Positions 9,734 through 35,416 of a stretch of 64,000 nucleotides of DNA are shown one piece after another; position 1 is the stretch's first letter; every line of letters starts with the position of its first letter. The notes below the pieces were generated by a model. It did no database searches. It saw nothing but the letters and a program-made list of their open reading frames with translations, and was not told the origin of the DNA. The translations under genes were made by a program, and so were the position numbers. Origin of the DNA: an uncultured Clostridium sp. (GTDB lineage Bacteria > Bacillota > Clostridia > TANB77 > CAG-508). Location of the stretch: assembly GCA_946639585.1 (NCBI GenBank), contig CAMPBS010000004.1:5765-69764 (forward strand), read 5' to 3'.

Positions 9734-10555
9734 TTAGTCATGAATTATTTTTTCTATTATACTAAATAAAATAAATAAAACTAAGTTTACGATTACAATC
9801 ATTGCTCCTGTGCTTATATTGTATATGTAAGATAAGTATATTCCTATTAAGAATGAAATAACACTTATTATTGCTGAGCTTATTATTACTTTTTTGAATG
9901 ATTTGAATATTCTCATTGATGTTAATGCTGGGAAGATGATTATACTACTTATTAGCATAACTCCCATCATTCTCATACCTACAACTATTATTAATGCTGT
10001 TAATACTGCGATTATATTTGTGTATCTATTGGCTTTTAAGCCACTTGCTTTTGCAAAGTTTTCATCAAATGTTACTACAAATAGTTTTCTATAATAGATT
10101 ATAAATAAAACTGCTACTATAATACTAACAATAATACTTAAAATTACATCTGCTTGACTCATAGCAAGTATACTTCCAAACATGAAATTACATACATCTG
10201 TGTTCATCCCTGTTGAAAGTGACGTTGCTGCTACTCCTATTGCTAACGCAGAGCTTGATATTAATGCAATTGCACTATCGCTTTTTATTCTGCTGTTGTT
10301 CCCAATTTTTAACAAGATTATTGCTGATATTGTAACACATGGAATTGCTATGTAAAGCGGTGTTGCGGCTCCAAATGCTGTTGCAACAGTTAAAACTCCA
10401 AATCCAACATGTGATAGTCCATCACCTATCATACTATATCTTTTTAAGACAAGACTAACTCCTAAAAGTGCTGCACATAAACTTATTAAAACTCCTACTA
10501 ATACAGCTCTTTGAATAAATATATGTGACATCATTTCTGCTACATTTTGTATCAT
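9734..10555 (-). CDS. znuB: Zinc/manganese ABC transporter permease (ZnuB/AdcB family)
   Basis: 273 aa polytopic ABC-3 family permease. Overlaps the ATPase gene stop by 1 nt. Confidence 0.85.
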   Translation of the reverse strand: MIQNVAEMMSHIFIQRAVLVGVLISLCAALLGVSLVLKRYSMIGDGLSHVGFGVLTVATAFGAATPLYIAIPCVTISAIILLKIGNNSRIKSDSAIALISSSALAIGVAATSLSTGMNTDVCNFMFGSILAMSQADVILSIIVSIIVAVLFIIYYRKLFVVTFDENFAKASGLKANRYTNIIAVLTALIIVVGMRMMGVMLISSIIIFPALTSMRIFKSFKKVIISSAIISVISFLIGIYLSYIYNISTGAMIVIVNLVLFILFSIIEKIIHD

Positions 10556-11274
10556 TATTCAGCACCTCCATCTTTTTTATCTTCATCATGATGATGGCAA
10601 GGACATTCACAGTGTTCATTATGATATTTTTCTACATTTCCATTATAAGTAACTTCGCCATTTACAATCTCTATAACATTATCAGCATAATTTAAAGCTC
10701 TTTCTATATCATGTGAAACCATTAGCACTGTAATGTTTTCTTCTTTCTTTAATTTATCTAATAATTCATAAATTTGTTTTGCAATACTTGGATCTAATCC
10801 GTTGGTTGGTTCATCTAATACAATTATACTTTTTGTAGCGCATAATGCTCTTGCTATTAGAACTCTTTGTTGTTGTCCACCAGATAAATCTGCAAAACAT
10901 GTTTTTCTTACATCATAAATTCCAAGCTTTTTCATAACGTTTTTGGCATTTTCTTTGTCTTCTTTTTTATAAAAAATACTTCTTACATTATTTGAAATTG
11001 TACCAGAAAGTACTACTTCTTCTATTGTTGCTGGAAAATGTGCTTGTATTTCGCTTTTTTGTGGTAAATATCCAATGTGTTGTTCTTTTATTATTTCTCC
11101 TGAATATCCCTTATTCAAGCCTAATATACATTTTAATAATGTACTTTTTCCTGAACCATTTTCACCAACTATGCATGTAAATTTTCCTTGCTCTACGTTT
11201 ATGTTTATGTTTTTTAATGTATCCTTTTTAGTAGGATAACTGAAACTTAGATTTTTTATTTGAATTAGATCCAT
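10555..11274 (-). CDS. znuC: Zinc ABC transporter ATPase with Cys/His-rich C-terminal tail
   Basis: Walker A GENGSGKST, signature LSGGQQQR, Walker B ILDEP. The tail is HNEHCECPCHHHDEDKK. Confidence 0.9.
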   Translation of the reverse strand: MDLIQIKNLSFSYPTKKDTLKNININVEQGKFTCIVGENGSGKSTLLKCILGLNKGYSGEIIKEQHIGYLPQKSEIQAHFPATIEEVVLSGTISNNVRSIFYKKEDKENAKNVMKKLGIYDVRKTCFADLSGGQQQRVLIARALCATKSIIVLDEPTNGLDPSIAKQIYELLDKLKKEENITVLMVSHDIERALNYADNVIEIVNGEVTYNGNVEKYHNEHCECPCHHHDEDKKDGGAE

Positions 11275-11304
11275 TTTTTACCTCTTTTTTTTAATAATTA
11301 TATT

Positions 11305-11443
11305 AATCTAAATATATAATTTGTAAATCCTTGGTGTCGCAATTTCCATATTTTAAAATACTAGTATGTAAATTGCTCCAGTCGCCCTGCGCTTCGCTAC
11401 GGTTGGTCGCTTACGCGGATTTACAAATTTATATATTTAGATT
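11305..11443 (-). repeat. Palindromic GC-core element, family A, copy 2 (139 bp), inside the zinc operon
   Basis: Arms AATCTAAATATATAATTTGTAAATCC / GGATTTACAAATTTATATATTTAGATT. The core is the reverse complement of copy 1 with a few substitutions. Lies between the znuA stop and the znuC start. Confidence 0.75.
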
Positions 11444-12513
11444 TATTGTAATGCTTGTTTTAGAACTAAAACATTTCGTTCCATCAAAGAAACCCATGTT
11501 TCTCCCTTGTTGAAATCATCTAAAGAAACATTGTGTAAGCTTTGTATTTGCATTGCTTTGCATCCATTTCCTGCTTCATCTGCAATTGTTTTTGCTACTT
11601 TTCCATCATTCATTTCAATATATAAAACTACTGGGATTTTGTCTTGTTTTACTTTGTTTTCTAAATAAGCTATTGTTTTTGCAGATGGATCAGTTTCTGT
11701 GCTACATCCATTAAATGCTGCGCTTACTTCTAATTTATAATAATTTATAAAGTATTGCATTGGCATTTTATCACCAAATATTAATCTATTTCTAACTCTT
11801 TTGTTTACTACTTCTTGTATTCTTTTGTCTACATCTTGTATTTTTGCTATATATTTTTGAGCATTTGCTTGGTATTTTTCTTTGTTTTCACCATCTATTT
11901 GTTCCATTGCTTGTTCTAGTTTGTTTACCATTTTTATTGCATTTGAAGGTGATGTCCAAATATGTTCATCAAAAGCTCCTTCTTCATGTTCGTGATGATG
12001 TTCTTCTTTTTCTTCGTCTTCATGTTCTTCAGCCTCGTGTTCATGTTCCTCTTTTTCTTCTTCGTGTTCGTGTTCTTCTTCACCATGTTCGTGATGATGT
12101 CCTTCCTCTTCCTCAGCTCCATCAACTTCTTGTTCCTCTATTGTATCAACGAAGTTTGCAATACAAATTGTTTCTACATCTTTTTCTTCTTCTAATGAAT
12201 CTAGAACCTTATCTGCCCATTTTTCCATTTCTCCACCAATATATACAAATAAATCTGCATTTTGGATTGTTGTTAAGTCTTTTGCTGTTGGATCATAACT
12301 GTGAGCATCTTTTCCAGGTCCTAATAAGAATGTTAATTCAACATTTTCATTATCTCCTATTATTGCTCTTAGAAAATCATAACTTGCAAAATTACTTGCA
12401 ACAACTTGTTTTTTGCTTGTATCTTTCTTTTTATTATCTCCCATATTAAATAGTGCAAAACCCGCACCTACAACTATTAAAATAGCTAAAATTGTTAATA
12501 TTATTTTTTTCAT
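11443..12513 (-). CDS. znuA: Zinc ABC transporter substrate-binding lipoprotein with His/Glu-rich loop (ZnuA/AdcA family)
   Basis: Signal/TM N-terminus, cluster-9 SBP fold sequence, and a long GHHHEHGEEEHEHEEEKEEHEHEAEEHEDEEKEEHHHEHEE insert. Confidence 0.9.
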   Translation of the reverse strand: MKKIILTILAILIVVGAGFALFNMGDNKKKDTSKKQVVASNFASYDFLRAIIGDNENVELTFLLGPGKDAHSYDPTAKDLTTIQNADLFVYIGGEMEKWADKVLDSLEEEKDVETICIANFVDTIEEQEVDGAEEEEGHHHEHGEEEHEHEEEKEEHEHEAEEHEDEEKEEHHHEHEEGAFDEHIWTSPSNAIKMVNKLEQAMEQIDGENKEKYQANAQKYIAKIQDVDKRIQEVVNKRVRNRLIFGDKMPMQYFINYYKLEVSAAFNGCSTETDPSAKTIAYLENKVKQDKIPVVLYIEMNDGKVAKTIADEAGNGCKAMQIQSLHNVSLDDFNKGETWVSLMERNVLVLKQALQ

Positions 12514-12561
12514 TATTATCCTCCATTTTTTAAACTTTATTTTTGGTTTGAGATATTTTCC

Positions 12562-12861
12562 CTATTCATTCAATTGTACTTTATCAAATATTAAAGTTTT
12601 TTGTAGCGATATTATTTTTTCTTTTTTTATTTTATCTAACATTACAAAAATAAGAAAACCTATAAATGCCAATAAAATAATAGCATGTACAATGGTAATA
12701 AAATTTCGTGCTATTTGAATTATTTGACATTTTGCGCAATGCTCTTCATGGCAACTTTCTAAATGATGTTCATCTTGCGATACAATAACCATAAATAATA
12801 ATGAAATGCATATAACTGTTATTAACAAATATTTAATTGTTTTTAATAATTTATTATTCAT
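12562..12861 (-). CDS. Small two-TM membrane protein with HHLESCHEEHCAKC metal-ligand-like motif
   Basis: Start moved to MNNKLLK (RBS GAAGGTG 6 nt upstream). Lies between zur and znuA. No family recognised. Confidence 0.45.
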   Translation of the reverse strand: MNNKLLKTIKYLLITVICISLLFMVIVSQDEHHLESCHEEHCAKCQIIQIARNFITIVHAIILLAFIGFLIFVMLDKIKKEKIISLQKTLIFDKVQLNE

Positions 12862-12878
12862 TGTATCACCTTCCTTTT

Positions 12879-13268
12879 TTATTCTAAACAATCATCACAT
12901 AAGCCATAAATCATATTGTTATGGTCTAGATTAAACTTGTGCTCTGCTTTTATATGATTACTAACATTTTCAAATTCTTCACAATGTAAATGTATTGTTT
13001 TCCCACATTTTTTGCACTTTAAGTGAAAATGATTGCTACATTTTGAAGAAATGTATTGATAATGTTTTGTATGATTTATAATTTCTGTTCTTACACTATT
13101 GCTTTCTTCTAATATTTTTAAAAATCTATAAATTGTTGTTAATCCTACTATTTGATTTTTCTTTTTCAAATATTCCATTATTTGTTCTGCGTTAACAAAT
13201 TTATTTTCATTTTCTATTAAATAATCTTTTATTATTTTCCTCTGTTCTGTGTTATAGCTACTTTTCAA
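12879..13268 (-). CDS. zur: Fur-family metalloregulator, Zur by operon context
   Basis: 129 aa with an N-terminal winged helix and paired CxxC motifs (CKKCGK, CDDC). TTG start with a GGAGG RBS. First gene of the zinc uptake operon. Confidence 0.8.
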   Translation of the reverse strand: MKSSYNTEQRKIIKDYLIENENKFVNAEQIMEYLKKKNQIVGLTTIYRFLKILEESNSVRTEIINHTKHYQYISSKCSNHFHLKCKKCGKTIHLHCEEFENVSNHIKAEHKFNLDHNNMIYGLCDDCLE

Positions 13269-13400
13269 TCAAATCGCCTCCAAAAGAACAATAGTGGACT
13301 TATGATAATTGCATAAGATAAAATCTAATGCAAATGTCCACGTCATTGTTCGCGCGCGAAAATTTCGAAGAAATTTTCTGTGCATTTGTATTATCTTTCA

Positions 13401-29437: not shown

Positions 29438-29479
29438 ATTTAGTCCTTTCAATTTATTTTTTATTAATTATTTTTATAT

Positions 29480-29508
29480 TTGACAAAATACATTTATAGT
29501 AATATAAT
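29480..29508 (+). promoter_or_regulatory. Consensus sigma-A promoter on the otherwise non-coding plus strand
   Basis: TTGACA (29480..29485), an exact 17-nt spacer, TATAAT (29503..29508). Confidence 0.65.
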
Positions 29509-29514
29509 ATATGT

Positions 29515-29601
29515 AAAGGAATGAGTGCACAAACAATGTGTGCTACCGTAAACGGTTTTACACCACACAGCTCTGCAAAGCTAAATGTGGTGTATTTTTA
29601 T
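29515..29601 (+). ncRNA. Candidate ~85-nt sRNA
   Basis: Starts after the consensus promoter. Hairpins AGTGCACA/TGTGTGCT and ACCG-TAAA-CGGT. Terminator TACACCACA-loop-TGTGGTGTA followed by TTTTTAT. No ORF and no downstream plus-strand gene. Confidence 0.45.
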
Positions 29602-29688
29602 ATTTGTCTGTCAGTCCAGATTATGTATAAAATACACAATAAGGCGACATTTATGGTTATTGAAATTAATTCTTTTTAAATTAAAAAT

Positions 29689-30144
29689 CTAGTTACCTTT
29701 AAAAAAACTTCTTATTTTATTCCAAAATCTCTTAAATACAGATTCTTTATATTTCACCATTGCAACATTTTCATTTATTGTTTCAGTTTCTTGTATTGCA
29801 TCTAACGTTCTATTTTTGAATAAATTATTGGGATTATATTGTTCTCTTAATTCTTCTTCTTTTTTTCTATCATTATCAGCATAAATTGCAATTAACTCTT
29901 TTCTTTCATTTTCATCTTCACACCAATAATTTAGATTTAGCATTGCTAAAATAGCATAAGTTTTTTTCTGTAAATTTTGCTCATCCAATGGTATTTTGGG
30001 GTTAATATTAGGTGTATATCCTTGTAATTTCTCCTTTTTATACAATTCTCTTAACTTTTTTGGAATTTTTTCAACATAAATATTCGTCATATATGATAAT
30101 ATAATATCAACTTCTGCATACGCTTTCGATAATTCATTTTCCAT
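29689..30144 (-). CDS. Conserved small protein (151 aa), paralog of 23952..24413
   Basis: See 23952..24413. Last gene of the three-gene module 33393..29689. Confidence 0.6.
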   Translation of the reverse strand: MENELSKAYAEVDIILSYMTNIYVEKIPKKLRELYKKEKLQGYTPNINPKIPLDEQNLQKKTYAILAMLNLNYWCEDENERKELIAIYADNDRKKEEELREQYNPNNLFKNRTLDAIQETETINENVAMVKYKESVFKRFWNKIRSFFKGN

Positions 30145-30190
30145 AATAATCTCCTTTTTTATACTATGAAATAATTGACATTAAAATTTC

Positions 30191-32002
30191 TTAGTTACTT
30201 AACTCATTTTCCTTATTTATATCTTGCTCAAACACCATTCTTGTATATTGTGTAGTTTGATTGATTTCTAAAATTCCTATTCCAGCTCTTGCTGTTGCTT
30301 TTCCTATTTGCACAGGACTAAAATTTGCTAAAACAATCTCTAAATCTTCTTCATCCACTCTTATATTATCTTGTTCATAATATATTTTTCTTAATTCTTC
30401 TGGATCAGTTATTCCTGTATCTTTAAAGACTGCTTCTAAATACTCTATGTTATTCTCTCTTCTTCTACTTTCAATTCTTGCTTTTTCTTCATCAGTTAAT
30501 CTATTTACATCTTGTAAAAAAGCTGAAACTCTTTCAGAATTTTCAATCGCTTTTTCATCTAAATCTAAGAATAAAGATAATTGTTTTATATGTGCAAATT
30601 CATTTAATTCTGCTTCAAGTAACCTAAAATCTCTATATTCTTCTTTGTCCAATGTTCCCTCGTTATATCTTTTCTTTATTGTATTATACTCTAATAATTT
30701 TTCATTTGTTTTTTGTGATATATCTTCAAAATAATCTTTAAAATAATTTTTTGTAGCTGTTAAAATAGTTTCATAAGTTTGATCAGAAATTTCACCATCT
30801 GTATTTATTTTCATTTCCCTCATATCAATTTTTATACTACTATTTTCTTCTATGTTAGGTATAACATTCTTTAAATCTATTTTCGTACCTTGTTTTTTAA
30901 ATAATTGAGCATTTAAATCAGCATATATATTTCGTTTAATCTGAAATACTTGTTTTAATTCTTCCATTTGATTTTCTGAGATTACATTATTTTCTATTAA
31001 CCCATATAAAATAGCATACATTTTTGAATCTCTTCGTTTACCACCATTTTTTCTTTCTTCTTCTTCATCTAATCGTCTTTGTTCTTCTTTTGCTTTTTCT
31101 TTTTCAATTCTAACTTTTTCCTCTTTAGCTTTTTGTATTTGTCTTTTTCTTTCACTTTCTATCTCTTCATGCTTTACATGTTCAGCAACACTTGTTTCCA
31201 ACCTTTCAATTTCTTCTAATGCTATTTCTTCGACCGCTCCAATTTCTTTATATACCTTCTGTAGTATTTCTTTTTCTTCTAGCACCTGATTAAAAACATC
31301 TATATTAATACCTTGTTCTACAATAGCATTTTTATATTTTTCCATAATAACACTTAATCTTTTATCAACAGCTTGTTGTATTTCTGGATAACATTTATTA
31401 TATGTATTTAAATTAATTATAACAGCAAGTTGTTCATAAACTGTTGTTTGAATATCTGCTGTTTGATTTGATAAACCTAAATCTATAAAAGTTATATTTT
31501 TCCCTTTTTCATAAATAAAATTGCCAGGTTTTGATGGGTCAATTCGTATACCGGGTTTTTGAATTTCCATCCAGCCTCTTACAAAGTTCTTAAAAAAATC
31601 TTGTCCTTCTTGTGCTATTGAATCCATTTGTTTTAAATAATCTATTTGATATTTTTTTCCTTCTTCATTCCAATTTGTTCTATCTAATAGTGGTTCGCCT
31701 ATTGCTCTTTGTTGTAATACATATCCTTCTGAAATAAGCACATTTTTACCTGTATCCCATCCTTCAACATTTTGTTCTATTATCTCATAGTCCAATGTTT
31801 TGGCCACATTAACTCCATTCTTTTCAAGTTCTTTACCTATAATAATTATTTTTTCTATTTCATCCGTAGTAAATTTTTGCCTTAACAACGCATAATTATC
31901 AATTAAATAGCATTTTTTATTACCACCATGTGCATTAGATTCTTGTTGTTGTGCAATTTGTATAATATTTTCTATCAATCGTTCACTCATAGTATTTCTC
32001 AC
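30191..32002 (-). CDS. 603-aa protein with N-terminal protein-kinase-like domain, Glu/Lys/Arg coiled coil and C-terminal helical domain
   Basis: Kinase-like landmarks are GGNKKCYLI (Gly-rich), QQRAIGEPL (hinge-like), IRIDPSKPGNFIY (catalytic-loop-like D...N) and ITFIDLG (DFG-like). Residues ~270-320 are EEIESERKRQIQKAKEEKVRIEKEKAKEEQRRLDEEEERK. Confidence 0.5.
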   Translation of the reverse strand: MRNTMSERLIENIIQIAQQQESNAHGGNKKCYLIDNYALLRQKFTTDEIEKIIIIGKELEKNGVNVAKTLDYEIIEQNVEGWDTGKNVLISEGYVLQQRAIGEPLLDRTNWNEEGKKYQIDYLKQMDSIAQEGQDFFKNFVRGWMEIQKPGIRIDPSKPGNFIYEKGKNITFIDLGLSNQTADIQTTVYEQLAVIINLNTYNKCYPEIQQAVDKRLSVIMEKYKNAIVEQGINIDVFNQVLEEKEILQKVYKEIGAVEEIALEEIERLETSVAEHVKHEEIESERKRQIQKAKEEKVRIEKEKAKEEQRRLDEEEERKNGGKRRDSKMYAILYGLIENNVISENQMEELKQVFQIKRNIYADLNAQLFKKQGTKIDLKNVIPNIEENSSIKIDMREMKINTDGEISDQTYETILTATKNYFKDYFEDISQKTNEKLLEYNTIKKRYNEGTLDKEEYRDFRLLEAELNEFAHIKQLSLFLDLDEKAIENSERVSAFLQDVNRLTDEEKARIESRRRENNIEYLEAVFKDTGITDPEELRKIYYEQDNIRVDEEDLEIVLANFSPVQIGKATARAGIGILEINQTTQYTRMVFEQDINKENELSN

Positions 32003-32022
32003 CTTTTTATTATTAATATATT

Positions 32023-33393
32023 TTATCTACCTTTATCGTTTGTTTGTTGCTTTTGTTCCATTTTTCTTTTCATCTCCTCTATTTTTTGTGGATTTGACAT
32101 TCTTTGAATAGGTGGCAAATCTCTATATTGTCCGAAATTAGTTAGTGAATTTAAGAAGTCTTCTCTTTTTTTATTTGTTGGTGTAACTGAAATCCCAACA
32201 TTTTCTCTAGTTTCAGTGTGTTCTGGTAATATATCCATTTGTTTATGTACAAATTTTTCTACAAAAGATAAATTCAAAAATAAATTATTTTTTTGTAAAA
32301 ATCTTGCTACTTTTTGTTTTAGTGATAACTTATTTATATTCTGTTCTAGATTTATTTGAGATTCAACTATTGGCTCACCTATCATTTGCTTTAGCATTTT
32401 CAATTTGTTTCCTATATCTGGTAAATCTATATTCCCATTTCTTGATATTGTTTCTCTGTATTTATCTTGATATCTTGCATTTGCAAATTCTTGTATAAGA
32501 CCTTGTGCATTTTTAAATATTAATTCAAATTTATCATTACTTAAATTTGTATCATATAATTGCTCAAAAGCATTGTTTAAATCTCTCCACGCTCCTTTGC
32601 CTAAATACTTATCAAATTCATTTTCAACTAAACTAGAGTCATTTAAAATACCATAAAAAAATGTATTGGCCGACTCTTGTGTTCCATCTTTATGAGTAAT
32701 CATTGAATCAATTTTTTGCTCAATTAATTCTTCAAATGTAATTTCTTCTTCAAAATCATTTCTCATTGAAACAGCAAGTAATTTTACTAAATCATCACAT
32801 TTTTTATAAGAATTATATTCAGATAAATCTACTTTACCTGAAACAATATCATCAGCACTTATATTTCCTCTAATGGCTAGTTGAGCAATTAAATTGATTG
32901 CATTTTCTTGTATTTGCTCTCCATAAAATTGTCCTGTTTGTTCATCTCTTCTTATTAATCCTGAAACATGTCTAGAATTTGATTCTCTATCATATACTTG
33001 CCTTTGTGGATCAGCAACATTCAACATTAAATGTCCCATTTCATGAGCTAGTCTAAAATTAGCATCATGACCATCTATTTCTGGATACCTATATGCTAAT
33101 TCATAATAAAATCCATTTTCTTTCGTCGTTTTCCTTACTCTAACTTCTCCTTTAGCTATAAAATCCTCATCATATATAGCAGATTCTAAATCATTAAATT
33201 GTATATTTAACCTTTCCTCTGATGTATTAGTATTAAAATTCTCCAAAGCTTGTCCGTTTTGAGTTAATAAATTTGACATCAACTCTTTTATATTATCAAA
33301 TCTTTGTAATTCCTGACTTATTATTTTTCTAGCTTCTTGCTCATTTCTAGCATATACTACGAATTGACCTTCTCCGAAATTATATTTACTCAT
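32023..33393 (-). CDS. 456-aa cytoplasmic HExxH (HEMGH) metallopeptidase-like protein
   Basis: LAHEMGHLML, then QIQENAINL ~45 residues later (gluzincin-like spacing). No signal peptide. First gene of the module. Confidence 0.55.
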   Translation of the reverse strand: MSKYNFGEGQFVVYARNEQEARKIISQELQRFDNIKELMSNLLTQNGQALENFNTNTSEERLNIQFNDLESAIYDEDFIAKGEVRVRKTTKENGFYYELAYRYPEIDGHDANFRLAHEMGHLMLNVADPQRQVYDRESNSRHVSGLIRRDEQTGQFYGEQIQENAINLIAQLAIRGNISADDIVSGKVDLSEYNSYKKCDDLVKLLAVSMRNDFEEEITFEELIEQKIDSMITHKDGTQESANTFFYGILNDSSLVENEFDKYLGKGAWRDLNNAFEQLYDTNLSNDKFELIFKNAQGLIQEFANARYQDKYRETISRNGNIDLPDIGNKLKMLKQMIGEPIVESQINLEQNINKLSLKQKVARFLQKNNLFLNLSFVEKFVHKQMDILPEHTETRENVGISVTPTNKKREDFLNSLTNFGQYRDLPPIQRMSNPQKIEEMKRKMEQKQQTNDKGR

Positions 33394-33520
33394 TTGTTAA
33401 CCTCTTTCGTACATTTATACAACATAATTCTATCATAAAGAGCATTATTTGTGGGGATTGTTACAAAAATAACAAAAATGTAATGATATTGTATTATTGC
33501 TGTAATATTGCATAAAACTC

Positions 33521-33551
33521 AAAAAGGAGAAGTATCAACTTCTCCTTTTTT
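33521..33551 (-). terminator. Rho-independent terminator after the Nudix gene
   Basis: AAAAAGGAGAAG-loop-CTTCTCCTTTTTT, with T/A runs on both sides. Confidence 0.6.
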
Positions 33552-34168: not shown

Positions 34169-35176
34169 TCAAGTTTTATTTTCTGCTAAATATTTTTTAT
34201 ACATTTCATCCATAGAAGAAATATATTCTTTATCTTGCTTCACTCTGAATTTTTCATACTCTTTATTTGCTTTATCAATAGCTTGTTTATGGGAAACACT
34301 TCCAGCATCTATAAGCAAATCTTTTTTCCTAAATTTTATTAAATCATCTGTTGCATCAATCCATTTTTGCATAGTCATTATATTATGTTCATTCGCCATA
34401 TCTTCTGCATAATCTAAAAACAATGTTGTAAGACTTTCTAGCTTTTTTATTTCTTCTTCATTAAGATAATTCTTCGCAATACTTATATCATACTTCATTA
34501 TCTTTCCATTTGGGGAATTTTTCCAATTTGTAAGTCCCATATGTAATTTATTAGAATCAACTCTTTCATAGATTAATTCAGCTGCAGTATGGTTTGTAAT
34601 AGCATAGTGCAATTTATTTTGTACAATTTTAAAAAATGTATATGCTTCTTCTGAATCTTTATTATAATCAACACTAGTTGTTTCAAAAAGGTCAGTAATT
34701 TTTTGATATAATCTTCTTTCACTTAGTCGTATTTCCTTAATTGTTTCTAGCAATTCATCATAATAATCTTTGCCAAATTTTGGACCGTTTTTCATTCTTT
34801 CAACATCAATCTTAAAACCTTTAATAATATAATCTTTTAATACATTAGTCGCCCAAATTCTAAATTTAGTAGCTTTTTTTGAGTTGACGCGATATCCAAC
34901 TGCAATTATTGCATCAAGATTGTAAAATTCTATATTCCTTTTTATATTTCTATTACCTTCTTTTTGAACTATTTCCATTTTGGAAATAGTTGAATTCTTT
35001 TTAAGTTCTCCTTCTTCATAAATATTATTTAAATGCTTACTAATAGCAGGAACATTTACATCAAATAACTCTCCCATACTTTTTTGCGTAAGCCAAATTG
35101 TTTCATCTTTTAAAATAACATCAACATTTACTTTTCCATCTTCTGTTTCATACAAAATAATATTACTTTCGTTCAT
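34169..35176 (-). CDS. RhuM-family virulence-associated / DNA-binding protein
   Basis: MNESNIILYETEDGKVNVDV..TIWLTQKSMGELF..NLDAIIAVGYRVNSKKATKFRIWAT is characteristic of the RhuM family. Start set at ATG 35176, which has an AGGAGG RBS. Confidence 0.8.
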   Translation of the reverse strand: MNESNIILYETEDGKVNVDVILKDETIWLTQKSMGELFDVNVPAISKHLNNIYEEGELKKNSTISKMEIVQKEGNRNIKRNIEFYNLDAIIAVGYRVNSKKATKFRIWATNVLKDYIIKGFKIDVERMKNGPKFGKDYYDELLETIKEIRLSERRLYQKITDLFETTSVDYNKDSEEAYTFFKIVQNKLHYAITNHTAAELIYERVDSNKLHMGLTNWKNSPNGKIMKYDISIAKNYLNEEEIKKLESLTTLFLDYAEDMANEHNIMTMQKWIDATDDLIKFRKKDLLIDAGSVSHKQAIDKANKEYEKFRVKQDKEYISSMDEMYKKYLAENKT

Positions 35177-35416
35177 TTTGAAACCTCCTAATATATTATT
35201 AATTCTATACATGGGAATTGTTTTGAAAATTTTATTCAAACTTATATTCGTATATTATCATACTATTATTACTCTGTCAATTGTTTTTTATTTTTATTTA
35301 ACTATTAGAAAGTGTCGCAAAAAAAGATTTCATACCTTTTTTATTTTATAAAAAATAGCTAGGAAAGAATTTACTTTCCTAGCCCAAAAGTTATAAATCC
35401 TTTTAAACTCTAAATA

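Follow-up and report, generated by a model that had tools for sequence, protein, structure and literature searches.

Three co-directional genes that lie close together on the chromosome of an uncultured gut Clostridium raise the question of whether they encode a three-component system or have come together from different sources. The genes, here called g1, g2 and g3, are found on contig CAMPBS010000004.1 (GenBank assembly GCA_946639585.1) within a stretch of 64 kb that was analysed as a whole and is referred to as the window, and they encode a HExxH protein, a kinase-like protein and a small protein of a very large uncharacterised family, respectively (table 1). The original prediction, made from the nucleotide sequence only, described them as a three-gene module of conflict or defence flavour located in an accessory island. 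The best reading of the results presented here is instead that the trio is a lineage-specific juxtaposition of two gene sets derived from mobile elements, rather than a three-component machine.

The evidence for the set formed by g2 and g3 comes from a survey of 33 species-level genome loci containing g3 homologues, which consist of same-strand arrays of large unknown proteins. The C-terminal domain of g2 was found to recur behind other N-terminal heads, and the last ~40 residues of g2 form a tail with the pattern (F)SP.QIGK.T...GIG[IL].EIN..TQEI[RK], and then Q-, K- and E-rich residues. A hidden Markov model (HMM) of the tail identified 31 distinct proteins of at least eight architectures, all encoded in g2/g3 loci, and yielded no match in 357 kb of loci from similar organisms containing g1 only. 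The heads carried by the tail proteins include the kinase, at least three HExxH families, transglutaminase-like cysteine proteases and a nucleotidyltransferase (NTase)-like domain; a Fic protein and protein P0415 have tail-like ends that are not scored by the tail HMM. The Fic head and the Transglut_core head of P0415 score above the Pfam curated cut-off, and the NTase-like head below it, while a HipA/PI3K-like GNYDAHIENF motif was recognized in one tail protein by eye only. Sel1-repeat (E 9e-50) and leucine-rich repeat (LRR) proteins are encoded in the same arrays. A tail protein is found within 5 kb and on the same strand in 21 of 32 species-level g3 loci, and in nine of the 11 loci that lack one the downstream flank is shorter than 2.5 kb.

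Three types of tail can be distinguished, namely T1 (GIGLxEIN), T2 (FSEQEIGKxT only) and T3 (LEEMERQ...ENRKGQGQLH), and in a neighbour-joining tree of 37 g3 homologues the g3 clades agree with the type of tail, and not with the head, of the protein encoded next to them. A kinase head is associated with a T1 tail in g2 of the window, with a T2 tail in a 601-residue protein of locus L003 and with a T3 tail in a 405-residue protein of locus L024, and a g3 of the matching clade is adjacent in each case. Similarly, the HExxH head of family F108 carries a T1 tail in locus L016 and a T2 tail in L024, each with its matching g3 clade. Because the g3 clades match the tail, and because the same head is found on different tails, sequence comparison indicates that the evolutionary unit is g3 plus the C-terminal region, with heads being swapped onto this unit. 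It follows that g3 should act on the tail or C-terminal region as an adaptor, chaperone or regulator, rather than as a head-specific antitoxin or immunity protein, and the covariation of g3 with the tail is the strongest argument in favour of such a role. One g3 can precede several tail proteins (four in L003), and three g3 genes accompany five large proteins in L024.

In the g3 protein itself, a core of ~115 residues ending in YNP.NLFK (YNPDNLFK) is connected by a variable linker to an amphipathic basic helix at the C-terminus. When 1.84 billion representative proteins were searched with a profile, 4,125 clusters (at 50% identity, from public data) were retrieved at E ≤ 1e-3, the members of which are nearly all stand-alone proteins of ~150 residues. 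Among the variants are tandem-core forms and two kinds of fusion, in which g3 follows a Transglut_core protein or a VWA protein; in the former, P0415, the order is transglutaminase head, Q-rich tail and g3. Members of the family are mostly paired with proteins other than g2. On the other hand, homologues of the g2-type kinase are distributed over 10 lineages, in nine of which a g3 homologue is directly adjacent, and g2 and g3 occur without g1 in seven other lineages.

Turning to g2, its assignment to the kinase fold in the original prediction is strongly upheld. The protein contains the motifs GGNKKC (residues 25–30), IDPSKPGN (154–161) and IDLG (173–176), and no variation was found among 33 homologues at residues G26, N28, C31, D155, P156, S157, K158, N161 and D174. 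An AlphaFold model was obtained with a predicted local distance difference test (pLDDT) score of 83, falling below 50 in the tail from residue 564, and all 29 Foldseek matches in the Protein Data Bank (PDB) with E ≤ 1e-3 are kinases (probability 0.99–1.0), AmiN, Rio1, PknB, PKR, APH(2'') and WbdD among them, the bacterial effector kinase NleH2 being the next match (E 1.1e-3). The charged coiled coil and the helical C-terminal domain that had been predicted were also modelled, the former as a single helix of 77 residues of which 52% are Asp, Glu, Lys or Arg. The distance between N161 and D174 is 13 residues, as it is between N171 and D184 of PKA in the textbook numbering, whereas that between D155 and N161 is six residues as opposed to five in the reference kinases. 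K29, next to the Gly-rich HGGNKKC, is nearly invariant, and the ATP-binding Lys and the helix-C Glu are not assignable. With Rio, APH/AmiN and the effector kinase NleH, as minimal or atypical protein-kinase-like enzymes, g2 shares the fold, the invariant Asp and Asn of the catalytic loop, the invariant Asp of metal-binding type and a short N-lobe, with two strands only before helix C; it differs from them in the longer Asp-to-Asn spacing and in that a coiled coil, a helical domain and a tail come after the kinase domain. A Pfam scan of the 33 homologues gave no match, kinase models included, and an NCBIfam scan of g2 gave none. By taking into account the modelled fold and the invariance of D155, K158, N161 and D174, g2 is probably an active atypical kinase. 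Only 40 relatives were found in the databases, with a patchy distribution.

With g1, the gluzincin-like character proposed in the original prediction is moderately supported. No variation was found among 48 homologues at residues H117, E118, H121, Q162, E163 and N167, and E163 is the candidate third zinc ligand. In the structure model (pLDDT 79), a β-sheet precedes the HExxH helix, which is followed by a second helix with the invariant QE...N, so that the modelled order of secondary structure elements is that of the gluzincin layout: as in gluzincins, the HExxH motif is on a helix preceded by a β-sheet, and an invariant Glu is found on a helix ~42 residues further on. The signature and the topology therefore agree with the earlier assignment, and it is the support from fold comparison that is weak, with ColH collagenase as the best Foldseek match in the PDB (E 0.027, probability 0.63), M32 carboxypeptidase and BepA at E 0.8–3, and nothing significant in a viral structure library. 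With such weak matches, the peptidase call rests on motif and topology. The match of g1 to the Pfam M78 model (PF06114) scores 14.5 bits, below the cut-off of 22, and covers just 40 residues around HExxH. The M78 ImmA/IrrE and the ArdC-type metalloproteases are likewise carried by mobile elements, as g1 genes are found on transfer-related ones, but g1 lacks the ArdC N-terminal domain and, unlike known gluzincins and M78 proteins, has a large helical C-terminal half that ends with a conserved peptide of its own (LPPIQRMS.P...M.RKMEQ). The database name of g1 homologue P0223, ‘[Caudoviricetes] IrrE-like’, is not supported by its context, the neighbourhood of P0223 being chromosomal. A common origin of the HExxH heads was not detected by hhalign among g1, the 625-residue protein of the neighbouring cassette (see below) and families F2, F13 and F108 (probability 0.1–11%), the L042/L027 pair giving 52%.

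The distribution of g1 is what separates it from the other two genes. Homologues were found in 39 metagenome loci and four further contigs, and g2 and g3 are present just in the window lineage and in L074. The trio as such was found in close relatives of the window (L007–L009 and L048) and in this second lineage, L074, where g1 (84% identity) is split by a frameshift. In ~37 other loci, g1 occurs without g2 and g3 and has conserved neighbours of its own. They are, upstream, a 314-residue protein with predicted membrane segments and, downstream, a 133-residue protein whose alignment with a type IV coupling protein (E 2e-7) covers residues 444–511 of the latter, which may be read as the start of its all-α region; a relaxase gene in convergent orientation (Mob_Pre, MobV type, Pfam E 4.5e-42) is also present in 14 g1 loci. 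Since the membrane-protein, coupling-protein-like and MobV relaxase neighbours are conserved, the usual home of g1 appears, from these gene neighbourhoods, to be a MobV-type mobilisable element. In the window lineage, g1 has come to lie before g2 and is probably co-transcribed with it. The co-occurrence in other genomes on which the original prediction could be judged thus gave opposite answers: it fails for g1, but not for the g2–g3 pair, and the proposal of a three-gene system does not hold, other conserved partners accompanying g1 elsewhere.

With respect to the same loci, the 133-residue protein was seen at L077:9782-10183 and in 20 other loci as a stand-alone all-α-like fragment beside the MobV relaxase. 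Most g1 homologues (e.g. L077:8001-9491) also contain an insert, PEGYSINEFGEIIRP, that is absent from g1 of the window and that resembles EFEINQSGEIIRKGR of the 625-residue protein of the neighbouring cassette (approximately residues 558–572). A connection of this insert with the T1 tail was considered and not used, the resemblance being a loose one.

The coordinates of the trio, of its functional motifs and domains, and of the neighbouring cassette are collected in table 1.

Table 1. Features of the g1–g2–g3 locus and of the neighbouring cassette, with positions given in the numbering of the window.
Feature	Position	Strand	Remarks
Upstream region of g1	33394-33520 (~130 nt)	minus	ribosome-binding site AAAGAGG ~8 nt before ATG
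Terminator-like hairpin	33521-33550	minus	13-bp stem, then T run; closes the upstream NUDIX transcription unit
g1	32023-33393	minus	456-residue soluble HExxH protein; gluzincin-like signature; helical C-terminal half
g1, HEMGH (residues 117–121)	33031-33045	minus	on predicted helix 111–124; H117, E118 and H121 invariant
g1, ENAIN (residues 163–167)	32893-32907	minus	on predicted helix 159–173; E163 and N167 invariant, as is Q162 just before
g2	30191-32002	minus	603-residue open reading frame; kinase-like
g2, residues 1–245	31268-32002	minus	protein-kinase-like fold domain (AlphaFold model, Foldseek)
g2, D155-P-S-K-P-G-N161	31520-31540	minus	catalytic-loop-like; D155, K158 and N161 invariant
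g2, D174	31481-31483	minus	metal-binding-type; invariant
g2, residues 261–337	30992-31222	minus	single long charged helix, coiled-coil-like spacer (model)
g2, residues 400–559	30326-30805	minus	helical C-terminal domain, common to proteins with other N-terminal heads
g2, residues 560–603	30194-30325	minus	conserved C-terminal tail, type T1 (FSPvQIGKaT...GIGIlEINQTTQ..R); predicted disordered
g3	29689-30144	minus	151 residues; very large uncharacterised family
g3, residues 131–148	29701-29754	minus	C-terminal amphipathic basic helix; hydrophobic moment 0.56
SUKH/SMI1-KNR4 protein	26343-26732	minus	129 residues; immunity-type family; first gene of the neighbouring cassette
625-residue protein	24439-26316	minus	HEMRH at residue 118; T2-like motif TQKLGKETL near residue 530; middle gene, upstream of the g3 paralogue
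g3 paralogue	23952-24413	minus	153 residues; in the g3 clade associated with T2 tails

The description of the locus as a tight minus-strand operon is in agreement with the present analysis. The open reading frames (ORFs), as called, are separated by gaps of 20 nt (g1–g2) and 46 nt (g2–g3), and the hairpin that closes the preceding unit, together with the ~130 nt containing a ribosome-binding site before g1, implies that the trio has its own upstream region, so that it looks like a transcription unit of its own. Just weak consensus matches to a promoter were seen in the upstream region, and no terminator was detected downstream of g3. As for g2, the GTG called as its start at 32002 probably extends the gene too far: each of the 32 homologues compared begins with a Met that matches residue 5 (M5), which points to the ATG at 31990 as the likely start and would give a protein of 599 residues and a gap of 32 nt. 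The order NUDIX-g1-g2-g3-PepM29-TspO is repeated in near-identical contigs, and the chromosomal neighbours are housekeeping genes (ligA, NUDIX, PepM29 and TspO). The window is chromosomal DNA with a GC content of ~27%, and rodA, minDE, polA, ligA and sigF/spoIIAB-like genes were recognized by eye among its ORFs. The source organism belongs to the uncultured, small-genome gut Clostridia, the relatives being metagenome-assembled genomes from human, rabbit and chicken guts, one of which is a circular chromosome of 1.57 Mb. The accessory island of the original prediction does not show in the window itself, the GC content being flat across the window with no shift at the trio, no convincing flanking repeats being found around it and no mobility genes being detected in the window with family representatives. 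There is also no Rfam element or tRNA near the trio.

An imperfect hairpin, CACCACA...TGTGGTG, is found in the 236 nt that separate g3 from the PepM29 gene (29453-29688); it lacks a T tract and has no Rfam match. Between ligA and the NUDIX gene lies a RhuM-family gene (34169-35239, minus strand, Pfam E 2e-104), at the position of which the closest relative, L007, has only an 82-residue ORF, which indicates a small indel at the strain level. At 47196-47363, on the minus strand, there are two tandem tRNA-Gly(TCC) genes.

Family searches with the trio were essentially negative. No meaningful match was obtained for g1, g2 or g3 in Pfam, NCBIfam, PADLOC or PHROGs, and single-protein and profile searches against the PDB sequences found nothing; in the same scans of the trio and of the neighbouring cassette, the single match was that to SUKH in the 129-residue ORF. 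None of the six window proteins tested matched PADLOC-DB v2, the alignment of g1 with RmrA (E 0.026) being at chance level and g2 and g3 giving none. The proteins of the trio have no N-terminal signal peptide and no hydrophobic segment (best Kyte–Doolittle 19-residue score <0.9), so that the absence of secretion signals stated in the original prediction stands for the N-terminus, but the conserved C-terminal tail of g2 had been overlooked. The paralogy that it noted between g3 and the small protein of the neighbouring cassette is clear (35% identity, E 2e-19). This cassette fits the association between tails and g3 clades, because the g3 paralogue belongs to the T2 clade and the 625-residue protein contains a T2-like motif. 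It is also the only cassette of the window with an immunity-type gene; no immunity gene of a known superfamily adjoins g1, g2 or g3. The 625-residue protein has no homologue in any locus examined.

The genetic context of the relatives provides indications on the possible origin and role of the g2–g3 set. The L024 array is preceded, on the same strand, by split ORFs for a coupling protein (T4SS-DNA_transf, E 1e-14 to 1e-17), by a DUF87 VirB4-like ATPase and a sortase, and by small membrane proteins, and a coupling-protein gene precedes the array in L003. In approximately half of the g3 loci, genes for MobV relaxases, for tyrosine and serine recombinases and for DUF6076 proteins are found within 10 kb, and in L005 a serine recombinase is also found directly downstream of g2 and of a frameshifted g3. 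No immunity-like genes separate the tail proteins in the arrays, and no EssC-like ORF was found in ~850 kb of flanks, where the only ORFs of more than 1,000 residues, as classified by eye, encode a dehydratase-activator-type protein and an AddB-like protein. A 478-residue protein of L024 was taken by eye for a CHAP-type hydrolase, which Pfam did not confirm. At L087:4959-9101, immediately downstream of the spoIIIA operon, a g3 homologue and the distant tail-less kinase P0039 lie beside HipA-like fragments and an M78 peptidase. In L037, L038 and L040 (~9900-13400), an array with g3, an LRR protein and F1/F2-family proteins is located between tsf (EF-Ts) and pyrH, inside the conserved rpsB-tsf-pyrH-frr cluster.

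By taking together these features, the tentatively preferred explanation, although one that falls somewhat short of being probable, is that g2 is an effector derived from a mobile element, that its tail is a recognition or export signal and that g3 is the adaptor. We infer a mechanism in which g2 would be the cargo, with the kinase-like head and the C-terminal region ending in the ~40-residue disordered tail as the signal. The core of g3 would bind the tail or the C-terminal region, as suggested by the fact that the g3 clade tracks the tail type and not the head, and the amphipathic basic helix at the C-terminus of g3 might take the complex to the membrane. As an adaptor or chaperone, g3 would then present g2 to an export or translocation machine, for which the best candidate would be a conjugative Gram-positive type IV secretion system provided by an integrative conjugative element. 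Once outside the producer, g2 would phosphorylate a target in a recipient bacterium or, possibly, in a host cell. The points that have been counted in favour of export are the terminal position and predicted disorder of the tail, the occurrence of one g3 before several tail proteins, the lack of immunity-like genes between the latter in the arrays, the presence of Sel1, LRR and Fic proteins, and the type IV secretion neighbours. An extension of this scheme, which is rather doubtful as it stands, would see in these genes a delivery repertoire of gut Clostridia, in which kinases, Fic proteins, zincins, transglutaminase-like proteases and NTases, accompanied by Sel1 and LRR proteins, would make up dozens of effector families with few interchangeable tails and clade-matched g3 adaptors of ~150 residues, served by conjugative type IV translocation.

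Several observations weigh against an exported effector of mobile-element origin. Type IV secretion genes were found within the examined flanks in just two of ~40 array loci, no such gene is detectable in the 64-kb window, and no homologue of relaxases, recombinases or coupling proteins was found among the window ORFs with family representatives, so that export by a co-resident element has to be assumed. Neither g1 nor g3 was found by tblastn in INPHARED phages or PLSDB plasmids, and both are absent from the IMG/VR viral contigs searched; the mobile-element origin therefore rests on neighbourhoods in metagenome-assembled genomes only. Tail-less kinases are found beside g3 (P0039, 366 residues, and P0037, 540 residues), and the covariation of g3 with the tail could reflect the co-inheritance of a regulatory or sensor module, not of an export signal. 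Fic, HipA-like and NTase heads are classic toxin domains of toxin–antitoxin and abortive-infection systems, and in L005 (10475-12326) a pair formed by an AAA_15/AAA_21 ATPase and RloB, typical of defence loci, adjoins g2 and g3. Furthermore, protein substrates of Gram-positive type IV secretion beyond relaxosome components are essentially uncharacterised, conjugation being the one function for which these systems have been studied (PMC6540685).

The main alternative, possible but unlikely, is that g2 and g3 form a two-gene abortive-infection, toxin–antitoxin-like or defence cassette, in which g3 would be a promiscuous inhibitor or a sensor partner that restrains the toxic heads through their C-terminal region, the arrays being defence islands carried on integrative conjugative or mobilisable elements. 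The kinase, protease and other heads would then be seen as the toxins, in agreement with their domain types, with the cargo-like position of the genes beside recombinases and relaxases, with the ATPase–RloB pair of L005, with the HipA-like fragments and M78 peptidase that adjoin g3 and the kinase in L087, and with the absence of N-terminal signal peptides from g1, g2 and g3; Sel1 and LRR proteins could serve as sensors. The conflict or defence flavour attributed to the locus by the original prediction was reasonable, relatives of all three genes adjoining relaxases, recombinases, a type IV cluster, a SUKH gene and a defence-like ATPase pair, even if no PADLOC model matches any of the window proteins tested. 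A precedent is offered by PanA (Panacea), one antitoxin domain of which serves dozens of unrelated toxins (PMC8832971), much as one small conserved family is paired here with many unrelated toxic-type domains. However, PanA neutralises the heads in 1:1 bicistronic pairs, whereas the g3 clade tracks the shared tail with a ratio of up to 1:4 (one g3 with four tail proteins in L003, three with five large proteins in L024), the partners of g3 are large multi-domain proteins, and no match to PanA (DUF4065) was found in g3. The 1:1 pairing with a toxin-specific antitoxin that characterizes type II toxin–antitoxin systems is likewise not seen. A specificity directed to a disordered tail of 40 residues is unlike that of head-specific antitoxins and immunity proteins, the proteins are large (350–860 residues) with long spacers, and arrays run in the same direction as a type IV secretion operon, all of which weighs against this alternative.

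The remaining explanations are all improbable, to different extents. That g1, g2 and g3 would form a three-component conflict system in the literal sense, with g1, for example, processing or activating the kinase or a partner, is suggested by their tight spacing in one apparent transcription unit and by the presence of the trio in L007–L009, L048 and L074, but it is made improbable by the ~37 loci in which g1 has its own neighbours, by the seven lineages with g2 and g3 only, by the frameshift that splits g1 in L074 and by the lack of a PADLOC match. Slightly less credit is given to the possibility that the tail proteins are type VIIb substrates with reverse domain order, whose composite signal would be completed by g3 as a helical partner of the Lap-like kind. 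Reverse-orientation type VIIb toxins with small helical Lap-like partners, TslA and TslM, do exist in Firmicutes (PMC10730906, PMC13560087), and they resemble the present proteins in the N-terminal enzyme, the helical C-terminal targeting region and the small partners encoded alongside; the C-terminal domain of g2 is helical in the model, and g3 is small and, by eye from the sequence, seemingly helical. On the contrary, no LXG, WXG100 or type VII-related Pfam match was obtained with g2, g3 or the array proteins, the modelled C-terminal domain of g2 consists of short helices and not of a long LXG-type hairpin, neither an EssC-like ATPase in the flanks nor cognate immunity genes between the tail proteins were found, and the secretion genes seen nearby are of type IV and not of type VII. 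Very little weight is finally attributed to the view that these proteins serve a sporulating Clostridium in ordinary signalling or housekeeping within the cytoplasm, with no role in conflict or export: the neighbouring housekeeping genes and a GC content equal to that of the rest of the window would agree with it, but not the patchy distribution and the few database relatives of g2, the polymorphic heads on a shared tail, and the paralogous cassettes in tandem arrays beside mobility genes, with one array inserted between tsf and pyrH.

For the effector interpretation of g2, the closest precedent, by analogy only, is that of the X-Tfe effectors of Xanthomonas and Stenotrophomonas, in which variable heads are followed by a C-terminal XVIPCD domain with a Gln-rich tail that binds the all-α domain of VirD4 (PMC8740702). 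In both cases diverse heads share a C-terminal region, the tails here being terminal, rich in Gln, Lys and Glu and predicted to be disordered, and genes for coupling proteins, or for the all-α-like stand-alone fragment, are found near the loci of the relatives. The differences are also clear, since the published XVIPCD fold is α-α-β-β-β (PMC8740702), as opposed to the helical domain and short tail of g2 in Gram-positive Clostridia; X-Tfes have cognate immunity genes and no small adaptor, whereas here there is mostly no immunity-like neighbour and g3 co-varies; and the secretion genes found here are of the conjugative-element type. The comparison can be extended to other type IV systems. The Bep effectors of Bartonella contain a Fic head, a BID domain and a charged tail, and VirE2 and VirE1 are a type IV effector–chaperone pair; the likeness lies in the enzymatic head (Fic is present in this family too), in a C-terminal bipartite signal and in the small partner encoded next door, but no similarity to BID or VirE1 was detected, and hosts and type of secretion system differ.

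Thus, the families described here are new, while the broad kind to which they would belong by analogy, that of polymorphic effectors with a C-terminal recognition region, is already known, and the mechanism is a proposal. Annotation should not carry the three-gene ‘system’ forward as a unit. What emerges in its place is that the g2 tail family is a large undescribed family of proteins with swappable enzymes and a common tail in uncultured gut Clostridia, often encoded beside DNA-transfer genes, and that g3, with more than 4,000 clusters, is a very common protein of these organisms without a known role. The combination of a swappable head, one of three tails and the matching g3 clade is a concrete and testable recognition code. 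Should the genes turn out to be a defence or toxin module, their modular architecture would be new in that the tail, and not the toxin, is what the partner reads. If, instead, the tail is an export signal, the way would be open to the study of protein translocation by Gram-positive conjugative systems, and a repertoire of kinase, Fic and protease effectors would be revealed in abundant uncultured gut commensals. The broader delivery repertoire, if true, would give the protein substrates of Gram-positive type IV secretion their first defined signal-and-adaptor code, with effectors that would enter recipient bacteria as establishment or anti-defence factors, or host cells.

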